From: Chloroflexota bacterium
GTDB lineage: Bacteria; Chloroflexota; Anaerolineae; UBA7937; JACPPX01
Direction of reading: 5' to 3'
Assembly (NCBI GenBank): GCA_016190785.1
Contig: JACPPX010000118.1
Coordinates: 1 to 27,981 of the forward strand
DNA: 27,981 nt
Below, piece by piece: positions 12,176 to 27,981 of the stretch. The translations under genes and the position numbers were made by a program. The notes beneath the pieces are model-generated. The model ran no database searches. It saw nothing but the letters and a program-made list of their open reading frames with translations, and was not told the origin of the DNA. Position 1 is the stretch's first letter; every line of letters begins with the position of its first letter.

Positions 12176-12204
12176 TTGACTTCGCTGGAAGGCAGTCGTA
12201 TAAT
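12176..12204 (+). promoter_or_regulatory. sigma70-type promoter of ilvE
   Basis: TTGACT (12176-12181), 17 bp, TATAAT (12199-12204). Confidence 0.8.
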
Positions 12205-12278
12205 AAGGATTGGCACCAACGAGGGCAACGGACAATGAAGTCTACCCCGATCAAGGGGAAATCCAAGGAAGGAGAAAA

Positions 12279-24182: not shown

Positions 24183-25034
24183 ATGGGCACCCTTTATCTG
24201 GTGGCCACCCCCATTGGCAATTTGGAGGACATAACCCTTCGCGCCCTACGCATCCTCAAGCAAGTAGCCCTCATCGCCGCCGAGGATACTCGGCGCACAA
24301 AAATCCTCCTCGATCACTATCAGATCAAAACCCCCATGACCAGTTACTTTGAGCACAACAAATTGACCAAACTCCCCCGCATTATGCAGGCCCTCCAAGA
24401 GGGCGATGTGGCCTTGGTCTCAGAAGCGGGGATGCCGGGCATATCCGATCCAGGATACGAACTGGTGAAGGCTGCGCTCGATGCCGGATACGCTGTAGTC
24501 CCCCTCCCCGGGCCTTCGGCGGTAACTGCTGCCCTAGCAGCCTCCGGCCTGCCCACCGATAGTTTCCTCTTCCTCGGCTTCCTGCCCCGCAAAAAGGGCG
24601 AGCGAAGACAGGTGCTGCAAAGCGTAGTCGCGGAGAGCCACACCCTAGTGGCCTTCGAGGCTCCCCACCGCATCGTCGAGAGTCTTGGAGACATCGTAGA
24701 CATTTTGGGCGATCGAAAGATAGCTTTGGCGCGGGAAGTGACTAAAATCCACGAAGAGATACAGCGCGGCACCGTTTCCAAAATTCTGGCCTACTTCCAG
24801 AGGACCGAGCCCCGCGGGGAGTTCACCATAATTCTTGCCGGAGCCGAGCCGCAGGCCTGGGACGCAGAGCGCATCCGCCACAGGATTATCCAGTTGCAGG
24901 AGGAGGGAGTAGCCGGGGGAGAGGCTGTCCGCCAGGTATCTCGACTCGCTGGCAAATCCCGCAACGAAATCTACAAAATCTGGTTGAGCATCAAGCAAGG
25001 AAACCGGAAGGAGAAAAGTGATCGACCTCGATAA
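24183..25034 (+). CDS. rsmI: 16S rRNA C1402 2'-O-methyltransferase
   Basis: LYLVATPIGNLEDITLRAL, AAEDTR, SEAGMPGISDPG, AREVTKIHEE. Confidence 0.97.
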   Translation: MGTLYLVATPIGNLEDITLRALRILKQVALIAAEDTRRTKILLDHYQIKTPMTSYFEHNKLTKLPRIMQALQEGDVALVSEAGMPGISDPGYELVKAALDAGYAVVPLPGPSAVTAALAASGLPTDSFLFLGFLPRKKGERRQVLQSVVAESHTLVAFEAPHRIVESLGDIVDILGDRKIALAREVTKIHEEIQRGTVSKILAYFQRTEPRGEFTIILAGAEPQAWDAERIRHRIIQLQEEGVAGGEAVRQVSRLAGKSRNEIYKIWLSIKQGNRKEKSDRPR

Positions 25035-26085
25035 CCCTCAGACTTTGAAAAAGAATGACCGGGGGGAGATGGGACTCCGTCTCTCCGAACTCCCCCTCCA
25101 ATGCCGCACCGCCTGGCAAATCGCCCAGGAGTGGTCACCCCCTGCGGAGTACCGCGAAGTCGACAGTGCAATCATCTTGGGGATGGGCGGTTCGGCCATC
25201 GGCGGCGACCTTCTGCGGGGGCTGGTCTCCGATTCCTGCCCCTTGCCCATCTTCCTCCTCCGCGATTACTCCTTGCCCCACTTTGCGGGCTCACGAACTC
25301 TGGTAATCGCCTCCAGCTTTTCCGGGGATACAGAGGAGACCCTTTTCGCCTTCCAGCAAGCATTGCAGAGGGATTGCAAGACCTTAGCCATCTCCACTGG
25401 AGGCAGATTGGCCCAACTGGCCGAGGGATCGGCAGTACCGCTCTTGACCTTCAACTATCCCCCTCCCCCCCGTGCGGCAACCGGATTCTCACTTGTTCTC
25501 CTCCTGGGGGTCTTTTACCACCTGGGATTAATCCCTGATCCGTCTCCAGACCTCGAGGAAGGAATTGCTCTTTTGGAAAGTGGCATATCCCAATTTCGGG
25601 AAGAAGTGCCCACCTCCCAAAACCCGGCCAAGCAGTTAGCAGAGAAAATCCAAGGCCGGATCCCAGTCTTCTGGGGGGCGGAGCACCTCCACCCTGTTGC
25701 CCGACGCTGGAAGACCCAGGCCAATGAAAACAGCAAACTCGCCGCCTTCTTTGAGGCACTCCCCGAGATCCACCACAACGCGGTGGTCGGCCTCCGCTTT
25801 CCCACCGACTTGGCCCAGAAAATCTTTGTCGTCGTTCTTACCTCCAACCTGCTCCATCCCCGCAACCTGCTGCGGGTCCAGGTAACCGCCGAAGTTCTGG
25901 CCAAAGAGAAAATCCCCTATCAAGTAATTGAGGTGCTGGGAGAGACACGGCTGGCTGAGGTGCTGTGGGGAGTGCTCCTGGGCGACTATGTCAGCCTATA
26001 CCTCGCCGCCCGCAACGGTGTGGACCCCAGTGAGATAGAAGTCATTTCTCAGATCAAGAAGAGGATGGCCGAGGGATGGAGATAA
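25018..26085 (+). CDS. Bifunctional phosphoglucose/phosphomannose isomerase (SIS fold)
   Basis: GMGGSAIGG, SSFSGDTEET, KTQANENSK, PEIHHN; overlaps the rsmI end by 17 bp. Confidence 0.92.
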   Translation: MIDLDNPQTLKKNDRGEMGLRLSELPLQCRTAWQIAQEWSPPAEYREVDSAIILGMGGSAIGGDLLRGLVSDSCPLPIFLLRDYSLPHFAGSRTLVIASSFSGDTEETLFAFQQALQRDCKTLAISTGGRLAQLAEGSAVPLLTFNYPPPPRAATGFSLVLLLGVFYHLGLIPDPSPDLEEGIALLESGISQFREEVPTSQNPAKQLAEKIQGRIPVFWGAEHLHPVARRWKTQANENSKLAAFFEALPEIHHNAVVGLRFPTDLAQKIFVVVLTSNLLHPRNLLRVQVTAEVLAKEKIPYQVIEVLGETRLAEVLWGVLLGDYVSLYLAARNGVDPSEIEVISQIKKRMAEGWR

Positions 26086-26107
26086 CAGAAAATCATGCGA
26101 TTTGCCA

Positions 26108-26136
26108 TTGACAAAAATATTTCTTTGTCGTATACT
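26108..26136 (+). promoter_or_regulatory. Near-consensus sigma70 promoter
   Basis: TTGACA (26108-26113), 17 bp, TATACT (26131-26136). Confidence 0.85.
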
Positions 26137-26196
26137 GAAAGGGATAGAGGTTGCCGGCCATGAATGTTTTTGGCTCCTCCAGGAGAAAAGAAGTCT

Positions 26197-26233
26197 AGAG
26201 CACCCGCCGTGATTGGCGCGGTGCTCTTTTTTT
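26197..26233 (+). terminator. Intrinsic terminator inside the leader of the peroxiredoxin-like gene
   Basis: AGAGCACC-CGCC-gtgatt-GGCG-c-GGTGCTCT ending in a T7 run; it ends 5 nt before the ATG at 26239. Confidence 0.8.
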
Positions 26234-26238
26234 AGAGA

Positions 26239-26898
26239 ATGGAAGAAGTCCTGGCCAAGCAGTATGCCGCAGCAGATGCCCGCTGGCTCCGCCTTTGGAT
26301 GCAAGGTCCCACCAAAACTTCTTATCGCCAACTTCCGGTCCAGGTAGGAGAGCCTGCCCCAGATGTCGAACTCATCGATTCGGAGGGCAACCCAGTCCGG
26401 CTTAGCAACTTCTGGAAGGAGAGCCCCTTGCATCTCTTTTTCCTTCGCCATTACGGTTGCTCCTGTATGAAAGAAAGGTGGGGTCAATTGCGAGAGGAGT
26501 ATCCCAAACTGCGCGAGGCGGGAGCCCAGATGGTGGCCATAGGAATGGGCGAGCCGGAGCGCACTCAACTTTTCATCAAGGTCCGAGAGATACCAGCCCC
26601 TGTGCTTTGCGACCCGGAACAGAGAGCCTATACAGCCTATGGGATCATTGAAGGCACACCTCCCGCCATCCTCCACAATTCCGATTGGCAGCCTGATGAT
26701 GAAGAAACTGGCCGCAAGATGATGGACTCCCGCCGTGATACTGACCGTCGTTTGGTGGACAACCCCTGGATATTGCCGGCGGAGTTTATCATTGACCAGA
26801 AAGGGGTCATCCGTCACTCCCACCGCTATCAGTATTGCGAAGACTTTCCACCCACCACTGTCCTTCTAGGAGCCATCCGTGCCGCGAAGCAGAGCTAA
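26239..26898 (+). CDS. Peroxiredoxin-like (AhpC/TSA, PRXL2-like) protein
   Basis: VGEPAPDVEL, FFLRHYGCSC, VLCDPE...AYG, PAEFIIDQKGVIR and YQYCEDFP. Confidence 0.85.
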   Translation: MEEVLAKQYAAADARWLRLWMQGPTKTSYRQLPVQVGEPAPDVELIDSEGNPVRLSNFWKESPLHLFFLRHYGCSCMKERWGQLREEYPKLREAGAQMVAIGMGEPERTQLFIKVREIPAPVLCDPEQRAYTAYGIIEGTPPAILHNSDWQPDDEETGRKMMDSRRDTDRRLVDNPWILPAEFIIDQKGVIRHSHRYQYCEDFPPTTVLLGAIRAAKQS

Positions 26899-26932
26899 AG
26901 TTTCCACTAGCCCAGTAAAGAAAGGGGGAGAT

Positions 26933-27199
26933 ATGGATTCCGCAATGATCGGCAAGATCGAGAAGGCGAAACGCTACGCCGAAGAACGGGAACAGCGCAT
27001 CGCCTTCGGGATGTTCCAGGTTACCGTCCAAGGCAACCACCGCCCCCATCAGGTAACCTTCGAACAGGGGAAGTGGGCCTGCGACTGCGATTTCTTCGCC
27101 GCCCGCGGGGTGTGCAGCCACACCATGGCCCTGGAAAGGGTCCTGGAGGGAATGCTCCCCGCTCTACAAGAGCCAGCAGCCCAAACCGCAGCCAGATAA
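26933..27199 (+). CDS. Small SWIM-type zinc-finger protein
   Basis: MDSAMIGKIEKAKRYAEE...WACDCDFF...CSH (CxC...CxH). Start reassigned to ATG 26933 (SD AAAGGGGGAG). Confidence 0.8.
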   Translation: MDSAMIGKIEKAKRYAEEREQRIAFGMFQVTVQGNHRPHQVTFEQGKWACDCDFFAARGVCSHTMALERVLEGMLPALQEPAAQTAAR

Positions 27200-27226
27200 T
27201 TTCTTGAGCACTTTCTCGATCGGCGC

Positions 27227-27267
27227 AAGCGGGCGCCGACCTAGGTCGGAGTTCGCTTTTTGTTTTT
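27227..27267 (+). terminator. Intrinsic terminator after the SWIM gene
   Basis: AAGCGGGCG-CCGACCTAGGTCGG-AGTTCGCTT hairpin followed by TTTGTTTTT. Confidence 0.75.
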
Positions 27268-27342
27268 GCGGCCTGCTAGCCTTAGGTCAACAACTAGCAT
27301 AAGATTGAAGGCAATCGTCAAGAGGGGTGTGGTGACCGAGAA

Positions 27343-27981
27343 ATGAAAGTAGGGATTATTGGGGGCGGCTTCGCCGGGATGACCGCCGCCTACGAACTGG
27401 GCAAAAGGGGACACCAGACCGTTCTAATTGAACGGATGCCGGAGCTGGGCGGCCTGGCAGGAACTTTTCCCATCGAGGGTACCCGCTTGGAAAGAGGCTA
27501 CCATCATTGGTTCACCAGTGACACGGAGATCATTGGCCTGATGGAGGAGTTGGGGCTGGGCGATCGGGTGATGTGGATCCCCTCCAAGGTCGGCCTCCTC
27601 CACGGCGGCAAGATCTGGAACTGGGTGACGCCTATGGACATCCTGAGTTTTACCCCCCTGTCCTCCCCCGATCGACTCCGGCTCGGGGTCACCACCTTCT
27701 ACCTGACCTACATCGCCGCCTGGGGAGATGTGCAAAAGAAAATAGCTGCCTACGAAAAGATCACCGCCGCGGCCTGGCTCAAGAAATACGCCGGCCCCCA
27801 TCCCTGGGAGAAGGTCTGGGAACCTCTCTTCCGCGGGAAGTTCGGGGCCGAGGCTGAACACGTGCCCTTGGTTTGGCTGTGGTACAAGGCGGTCTTGCGG
27901 CTTGGCTCGCGCCGGGGCTTGACCAAAGAGGTCCTTGGCTATCCGCGTGGTTCCTTCCAAGTCCTGATCGATGCTCTGGAA
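27343..27981 (+). CDS. FAD-dependent oxidoreductase (amine oxidase/HemY-like); 3' end lies outside the window
   Basis: Manual translation MKVGIIGGGFAGMTAAYELGKRG...ERMPELGGLA...ERGYHHWFTSD...GYPRGSFQVLIDAL; GxGxxG Rossmann motif; open to the window edge and missing from the ORF track. Confidence 0.92.
   Translation, partial: MKVGIIGGGFAGMTAAYELGKRGHQTVLIERMPELGGLAGTFPIEGTRLERGYHHWFTSDTEIIGLMEELGLGDRVMWIPSKVGLLHGGKIWNWVTPMDILSFTPLSSPDRLRLGVTTFYLTYIAAWGDVQKKIAAYEKITAAAWLKKYAGPHPWEKVWEPLFRGKFGAEAEHVPLVWLWYKAVLRLGSRRGLTKEVLGYPRGSFQVLIDALE

Follow-up and report, generated by a model that had tools for sequence, protein, structure and literature searches.

What does a strong intrinsic terminator do between a near-consensus promoter and the genes behind it? 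The question is raised by a locus near the end of contig JACPPX010000118.1 of a Chloroflexota bacterium (assembly GCA_016190785.1), where a promoter, a short upstream open reading frame (uORF) and a terminator all lie within the 153 nucleotides (nt) between the stop codon of pgi and the start of a peroxiredoxin-like gene. The whole stretch of DNA analysed, referred to here as the window, is 27,981 nt long and is contig C105 of a 1.25-Mb metagenome-assembled genome, which is 80% complete and has a G+C content of 56%; all coordinates are those of the window and all features lie on the + strand. In our reading, to which we assign a probability of about 0.6, the element is the local copy of a leader-peptide transcription attenuator that is conserved across the Chloroflexota and would control a small gene encoding a SWIM zinc-finger protein. 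An earlier note on this DNA had proposed ribosome-controlled attenuation of a unit of the peroxiredoxin-like and SWIM genes. Attenuation by the ribosome is indeed the best-supported reading, as promoter, open reading frame (ORF) and terminator are conserved and stop codons at the 5' arm of the hairpin exceed those of shuffled sequences; the leader is, however, that of the SWIM gene and not of the peroxiredoxin-like gene.

A check of the sequence places the promoter, the Shine-Dalgarno (SD) sequence, the uORF, the hairpin, the T7 run and the next ATG exactly where the earlier note had put them. The sigma-70-type promoter (26108-26136) consists of TTGACA (26108-26113), a 17-nt spacer and TATACT (26131-26136), with 11 of 12 positions matching, and predicts a transcription start near 26143. 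The SD-like GAGG (26147-26150) stands 9 nt 5' of the ATG at 26160, from which a uORF of 12 codons plus TAG (26160-26198, MNVFGSSRRKEV) runs to a stop whose last two bases are also the first two of the stem of the terminator. The intrinsic terminator (26197-26234) has a stem of 13 pairs (26197-26227) with a folding energy of -22.5 kcal/mol, followed by T7. The next ATG, at 26239, was said to have a weak SD and no room for a promoter of its own, which holds: only AGAGA lies upstream of it, and no acceptable promoter hexamers were found between the hairpin and this ATG or in a position that would give it a leaderless start. Alignments of orthologues begin at residue 1-3 and back the same start codon. 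The window occurs in groundwater metagenome runs, and contigs from four such runs are identical over the leader.

If these parts form an attenuator, they would be expected to work as follows. The near-consensus promoter, acting constitutively, would start an RNA near 26143; a ribosome would bind GAGG and translate the 12-codon ORF, the stop of which overlaps the foot of the strong terminator. A ribosome close behind the polymerase would then cover the 5' arm while the 3' arm and the U-run emerge, so that the hairpin would be blocked and transcription would continue into the peroxiredoxin-like and SWIM genes. Where translation of the uORF is late, slow or blocked, for example with the SD paired to the C-rich codons at 26176-26179, the hairpin would form and an RNA of about 90 nt would be released. 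Termination that depends on the ribosome in this way would make expression of the operon a report of how well translation keeps up with transcription. From the sequence we infer the transcription start, translation of the uORF, ribosome-dependent read-through and a physiological signal. In the predicted fold, GAGG pairs with CCUC at 26176-26179 (uORF codons 6-7), and a small hairpin within the uORF (26174-26185, CUCC-UCCA-GGAG), seen in the fold of the nascent transcript, is the alternative to this SD-sequestering pairing; it could be a pause or synchronising signal, for which we grade the support as weak.

Those features of an occlusion-type attenuator that sequence can show are present, namely an SD and a short ORF after the promoter, a terminator before the genes and a stop codon on the stem. 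Constrained folding found no antiterminator: with the 3' arm blocked, the best fold reaches -14.2 kcal/mol, against -33.5 kcal/mol. As no pairing competes with the terminator, a model of occlusion by the ribosome fits. The operon also favours it, with no second promoter-like site within 24500-27981 and with a closing terminator of its own.

Comparison with relatives shows which gene the leader belongs to. Searched against 40 relatives and the genome of the window itself, the leader DNA gave chance matches only. With the peroxiredoxin-like protein as the anchor, a search that covered relatives, genome contigs and metagenome contigs found about 150 orthologues (35-62% identity), which occupy different operons, following a gene for an F420-type oxidoreductase or for a membrane protein. 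None of these has a comparable leader, and neither pgi nor the SWIM gene adjoins them, so that the element can no longer be regarded as a peroxiredoxin leader. It belongs to the SWIM gene. In genome G004, of the same order, the region downstream of pgi reads TTGACA-N17-TAAACT, leader and terminator, and the SWIM gene follows directly; this layout is common to all 17 readable SWIM orthologues of the order. Across the class, presumed to be Anaerolineae, exactly TTGACA-N17-TATACT is found in 76 of the 97 regions upstream of SWIM orthologues. In 81 of the 97 leaders, a promoter that matches 10 or more of 12 positions precedes a terminator (-14 kcal/mol or stronger), and both lie before the SWIM start. 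The hairpin in these class leaders starts 41-120 nt past the -10 box and the strong SD of the SWIM gene lies 20-140 nt past the hairpin. The terminator stem shows compensatory changes among relatives, and RNAalifold on 11 leaders recovered the terminator only. Other classes show the same design, including locus L346 in a 1.5-Mb single-contig genome. The earlier note had named a leader that is not conserved as evidence against its proposal; conservation was found, in front of SWIM orthologues. Judged by gene order and conservation, the leader is the SWIM gene's, and the SWIM gene is its ancestral target.

The short ORF recurs as well. Class leader sequences fall into 53 similarity clusters, and all ten members of one cluster have an ORF of 16 codons (consensus MIVSALQIGKHC.PKH), with a G-rich block upstream of its start. 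That start is ATG in seven members and GTG in three, and the stop, which lies within the 5' arm, is TGA in six and TAA in four; two further clusters exchange TGA with TAA or TAA with TAG. Endings of CAC-TGA, CAC-TAA or CAC-TAG in the 5' arm are found in L266, L297, L304, L309, L311, L324 and L337. The opening ATGAATGG (M-N-G), similar to the M-N of the window (ATGAATG), is found in L216, L234, L273, L297 and L306. In several leaders the ATG stands 6-8 nt past the -10 box, and the uORF would thus be leaderless. Near-consensus promoters that end 6-12 nt before a start codon are frequent in the genome studied here (window 12176-12210, C2:4314-4351 and C99:309-343), which makes leaderless mRNAs seem common in this organism.

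The position of the stop codon was assessed with a judgement-free rule, in which the ORF opened by the 5'-most ATG of each leader is taken, against dinucleotide shuffles in which the hairpin is kept. A stop between -12 and the end of the hairpin is reached in 35 of 81 leaders, compared with 16.0 in the shuffles, with a sharp peak from -6 to +11, and these leaders come from 24 of the 53 clusters. A strict rule for an SD-led or leaderless uORF had given 48 of 81 against 25.8 expected; it was replaced by the first-ATG rule. The distance between the stop codon, counted from its first base, and an assumed termination point 7 nt past the stem amounts to 38 nt in the median (interquartile range 35-39), and to 39 nt in the window. 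In expressome structures the ribosomal P-site is 38 nt from the polymerase active site before collision, in the NusG-coupled form, and 34 nt in the collided form (10.1101/2020.03.01.971028). By this comparison, which is suggestive only, the terminating ribosome would stand about as near to the polymerase at the termination point as possible. A more far-reaching version, speculative and in our estimate improbable, would make the leader a phylum-wide sensor of physical coupling, with the SWIM protein acting back on the translation or transcription machinery in a homeostatic loop. In this version the stop would bring the terminating ribosome into contact with the polymerase just where termination occurs, and such a loop would be one undescribed in any bacterium.

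Chance estimates were made on the whole genome, with genes called using a dicodon model. Promoter sites matching at 11 or more of 12 positions number 93, of which 82 (88%) are intergenic, in a genome with 14% intergenic DNA; among 64 terminators with a hairpin and a T-run that fold at -20 kcal/mol or stronger, 47 lie in intergenic DNA. Given this bias, both the promoter and the terminator of the leader are very probably functional. An intergenic match as good as this one is very likely to be a genuine promoter, and the leader can safely be predicted to yield a transcript of about 90 nt. The uORF alone is not significant: 13% of dinucleotide-shuffled leaders give an ORF with SD and ATG that reaches the hairpin, 4% end at that same TAG, and accidental short ORFs are present also in the T-box and thiamine pyrophosphate (TPP) leaders of the same genome. 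The weight of the uORF therefore rests on its conservation in relatives and not on single-locus statistics.

A uORF within chance is also what would be expected if there were no regulation at all, with the hairpin an ordinary terminator of the rsmI-pgi mRNA, the promoter lying upstream of it by chance and constant, leaky read-through for which the terminator is a damper. The compactness of the genome speaks for this: seven strong terminators (-16 kcal/mol or stronger) are no more than 15 nt from a start codon on the same strand, most of them right behind the preceding gene. So does the upstream side of the locus, as no other terminator was found from the pgi stop at 26085 to the leader hairpin. 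The hairpin thus probably also ends rsmI-pgi transcripts, which the earlier note had set against attenuation as an alternative; the two are not exclusive. In G004 and in the related locus L316, pgi has hairpins of its own upstream of the SWIM promoter, and most orthologous leaders do not adjoin pgi. A promoter-terminator order with the uORF stop on the stem, kept phylum-wide, would not persist without function, and we regard the absence of regulation as distinctly unlikely.

Strong terminators of a similar placement, such as C61:640-687, C24:4320-4366 and C13:5201-5157, stand 0-24 nt from the next same-strand start and 16-29 nt after the preceding gene. They leave no room for a promoter, and read-through or operon-internal attenuation therefore seems frequent in this small genome.

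Another explanation is that the leader binds a ligand or a protein, being riboswitch-like or autoregulated by the SWIM protein, and controls termination in this way, with the short ORFs incidental. The layout of promoter, leader, terminator and gene resembles that of known leaders in the same genome. In 11 cases, a long gap leads up to a terminator that stands fewer than 45 nt ahead of a start codon, and three of these are known leaders with the terminator 17-29 nt before the regulated gene: a T-box (C45:994-1166, L200), a TPP riboswitch (C87:6459-6684, L204) and an L10 leader (C111:1803-1966, L198), the T-box and L10 matches being below gathering scores with E-values of 2e-15 and 5e-4. As zinc fingers, SWIM domains could bind nucleic acid, the peptide sequences of the uORFs are weakly constrained, and two groups of relatives have further structure, namely family f2, with a hairpin and compensatory variants upstream of the terminator, and genus g22, which conserves the hairpin ACACGCAG...UGCGUGU.

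Against a binding leader, Rfam offers no candidate. The whole window has no match in Rfam 15 at gathering scores; a sensitive search of the region gave the rnk leader as the best local match (E-value 0.98, driven by the terminator); and nothing in Rfam covers the leader in the 17 orthologous loci. No relevant family thus came up, in agreement with the earlier note, which had recognised no known riboswitch. Only the terminator is shared across lineages, in sequence or in structure, and the window has about 54 nt before the hairpin, with no antiterminator. Binding would also leave unexplained the excess of stops at the hairpin and the exchanges of ATG with GTG and of TGA with TAA. We consider this explanation unlikely.

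The transcript of about 90 nt might instead be a trans-acting small RNA, as the earlier note had offered as its second choice, with the genes behind it expressed independently or by incidental read-through. With a consensus promoter of its own and a strong terminator, such a short RNA should be abundant, and the genome holds nine gene-free promoter-to-terminator units. The RNA sequence is, however, not conserved among lineages, no seed-like block is shared among the 53 clusters, the place directly before the SWIM gene is conserved, and no other promoter serves the downstream genes. An exclusively trans-acting RNA is therefore, in our view, highly improbable; a small RNA as the main role is unlikely, while the transcript may have a dual role alongside attenuation. 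The gene-free units include C102:1553-1390 (L196), C21:1324-1461, C23:3346-3436, C48:10156-10394, C64:3680-3834, C89:1821-2060 and C151:4913-4830, and none matches Rfam at an E-value of 0.01 or better. The unit on C102, whose promoter matches at 12 of 12 positions, has a leader of 85 nt and a terminator 12 nt ahead of a gene, and is another candidate leader.

How a peroxiredoxin-like gene came to stand between the leader and the SWIM gene can be read from the closest loci. The leader abuts the SWIM gene in G002 and L216, of the same family, and in G004, of the same order. The order rsmI, pgi, leader, peroxiredoxin-like gene, SWIM gene and flavin adenine dinucleotide (FAD) oxidoreductase gene was found only in the window and in L316-L318, loci retrieved through a protein collection and encoding a SWIM protein 74% identical to that of the window. 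By this distribution, the peroxiredoxin-like gene was inserted between leader and SWIM gene in the lineage of the window and L316 alone.

L316 keeps the promoter hexamers, AGAGGTT and ATGAATGT. Its uORF also has 12 codons (MNVFRPAKGKTI, starting MNVF, compared with MNVFGSSRRKEV in the window) and a TAG that overlaps the base of the hairpin, and its stem keeps the lower part, AGCACC/GGUGCU, with an upper part that differs yet still pairs. To the hairpin at 26174-26185 aligns CCCC-GCCAA-GGGG, which is compatible with one compensatory change, and CCUC stands directly after the SD. At the U5 run of the window (26166-26170), L316 reads GUCUUUC. A second ORF of 23 codons in the window, from the ATG at 26164, 4 nt after the first ATG, to the TAG at 26233-26235, crosses the hairpin in frame with the peroxiredoxin-like gene and ends one codon before the ATG of that gene; its geometry is not kept in L316, and we accordingly read it as coincidence.

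Several points weigh against an attenuator controlled by the ribosome. The start site, the termination and the read-through are predictions from sequence, and the model names no signal or sensed molecule. Translation of the uORF may be poor, given that the predicted fold pairs its SD, and a stem of 13 pairs with T7 might simply allow a low, constant level of read-through. Under the first-ATG rule, the uORF ends more than 12 nt before the hairpin in 14 of 81 leaders and 11 have no ATG; some of the leaders that fail the rule would need TTG or GTG starts. Codon variability in the uORF shows no third-position excess, and synonymous and non-synonymous changes amount to 32/61 in frame, compared with 25/70 and 24/71 out of frame. 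The peptide is hence hardly constrained, as would be expected if translation and not its product matters, but this also weakens the argument that the ORF is coding. Family g271, of another class, has no clear terminator. Finally, the orthologous loci are related, and the counts overstate their independence.

Variants of the leader were seen in two groups. In family f93, of another class (L332, L334, L336, L340, L344 and L345), TTGACC-N17-TATACT precedes a leader of about 170 nt with no clear intrinsic terminator, and control there may be translational or Rho-dependent. In genus g22 (L282, L288, L296, L299 and L302), the leader hairpin ACACGCAG-(loop with GGGGGAGGCUUCCC)-UGCGUGU is kept; one member has ATC in place of the ATG within the hairpin, and a frame that is open in the leader can extend into the SWIM gene, which may represent a different variant of control.

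Among known systems, the leaders of pyrBI (pyrL) and rph-pyrE in Escherichia coli are alike in placing a ribosome at the terminator with no antiterminator. The rph-pyrE attenuator has the same kind of coupling-dependent control as pyrL, and the leader ORF of pyrL has 44 codons. The leader ORF described here is much shorter, and there is no sequence relationship. In the pyr leaders, which lie before pyrimidine genes, U-rich pause sites serve to sense uridine triphosphate (UTP), whereas here a peroxiredoxin-like and a SWIM gene follow and the U5 run is not kept in L316. In pyrL, a ribosome translating up to or through the intrinsic terminator suppresses termination, no antiterminator helix is involved and it is tight coupling that is controlled (PMC5021804). 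The pil1 leader of Streptococcus gallolyticus has the same geometric logic, a leader peptide before a premature terminator, and read-through is high with the stop in or near the hairpin and low with the stop 39 nt upstream (PMC3894217). The stop position of pil1 is switched by phase-variable GCAGA repeats, whereas here it is fixed and conserved, which leaves translation or the speed of the polymerase as the point where any regulation would have to act.

In Sinorhizobium meliloti, a small-protein gene (DUF1127) is controlled by a uORF combined with premature termination; the ribosome-binding site is able to pair with C-rich uORF codons, and the authors of that study propose that ribosome availability is monitored (PMC12218461). 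The window is similar in that GAGG can pair with CCUC in the uORF. Translation of the DUF1127 uORF promotes attenuation, however, which is the opposite sign to the model proposed here, and that system belongs to a different phylum and has no sequence relationship to ours. The trp, his, leu and thr attenuators likewise have a promoter-proximal leader peptide and then an intrinsic terminator before the structural genes, but the trp/his type needs runs of regulatory codons and a 2:3 antiterminator, and here there is neither, with no conserved codon run in the peptides. Terminator-type riboswitches and T-box leaders share the overall layout; here there is no conserved aptamer, Rfam match or antiterminator. 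An antibiotic-responsive leader of the erm, vmlR or msrD type was rejected, as the downstream genes are not resistance factors and no antiterminator is present. We found no published description of the leader in the literature searched, and it is best read as a new family of attenuators of the pyrL/pyrE/pil1 type.

The genes around the leader complete the locus. Upstream, pgi (25018-26085) encodes a bifunctional phosphoglucose/phosphomannose isomerase. The first gene 3' of the putative attenuator is the peroxiredoxin-like gene (26239-26898), a member of the AhpC/TSA family (PF00578) with the motif GCSC, the product of which is below the cut-off for the SelL-related redox protein (NF040769). 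Weaker peroxiredoxin relatives of the same class, at about 30% identity, are encoded by loci L027-L035, each with one in-frame TGA within the match; these may be selenocysteine versions, with the window gene as the cysteine form. The SWIM gene (26933-27199) starts 34 nt past the peroxiredoxin-like gene behind a strong SD (GGGGGAG) and encodes a protein of 88 amino acids with the pattern CxCx9CxH (PF04434, E-value 0.012). The second terminator (27227-27264, -19.5 kcal/mol plus T-run) closes the unit of the two genes.

Of 401 genomes of the class, 350 contain the SWIM protein, and so do 245 of 301 phylum genomes with a completeness of 90% or more; each tally includes one unpublished genome (G360 and G654, respectively), which enters no other claim made here. 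Few small proteins of the phylum are as widely kept. By source names and Atlas clusters, the family belongs to Anaerolineae and Chloroflexota, and SWIM homologues of 80-90 amino acids form about 4300 clusters at an E-value of 1e-5 or better. Residues D2, M5, K8, Y15, W48, C50, C52, C61 and H63 are invariant. The structure model is confident, with a predicted local distance difference test (pLDDT) score of 86.8, and found no match below an E-value of 0.3 in PDB or AFDB Swiss-Prot.

Groundwater, sludge, sediments and hot springs are rich in Chloroflexota, whose gene regulation is, to our knowledge, almost unstudied. A near-invariant promoter, combined with a stop codon on the stem at about the shortest distance between ribosome and polymerase, would offer a natural system for studying coupling-controlled termination outside Escherichia coli. 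The conditions under which read-through takes place would indicate when the cell needs the SWIM protein. The placing of a gene of the oxidative-stress type behind an existing leader would be a small example of how a gene is recruited to regulation.

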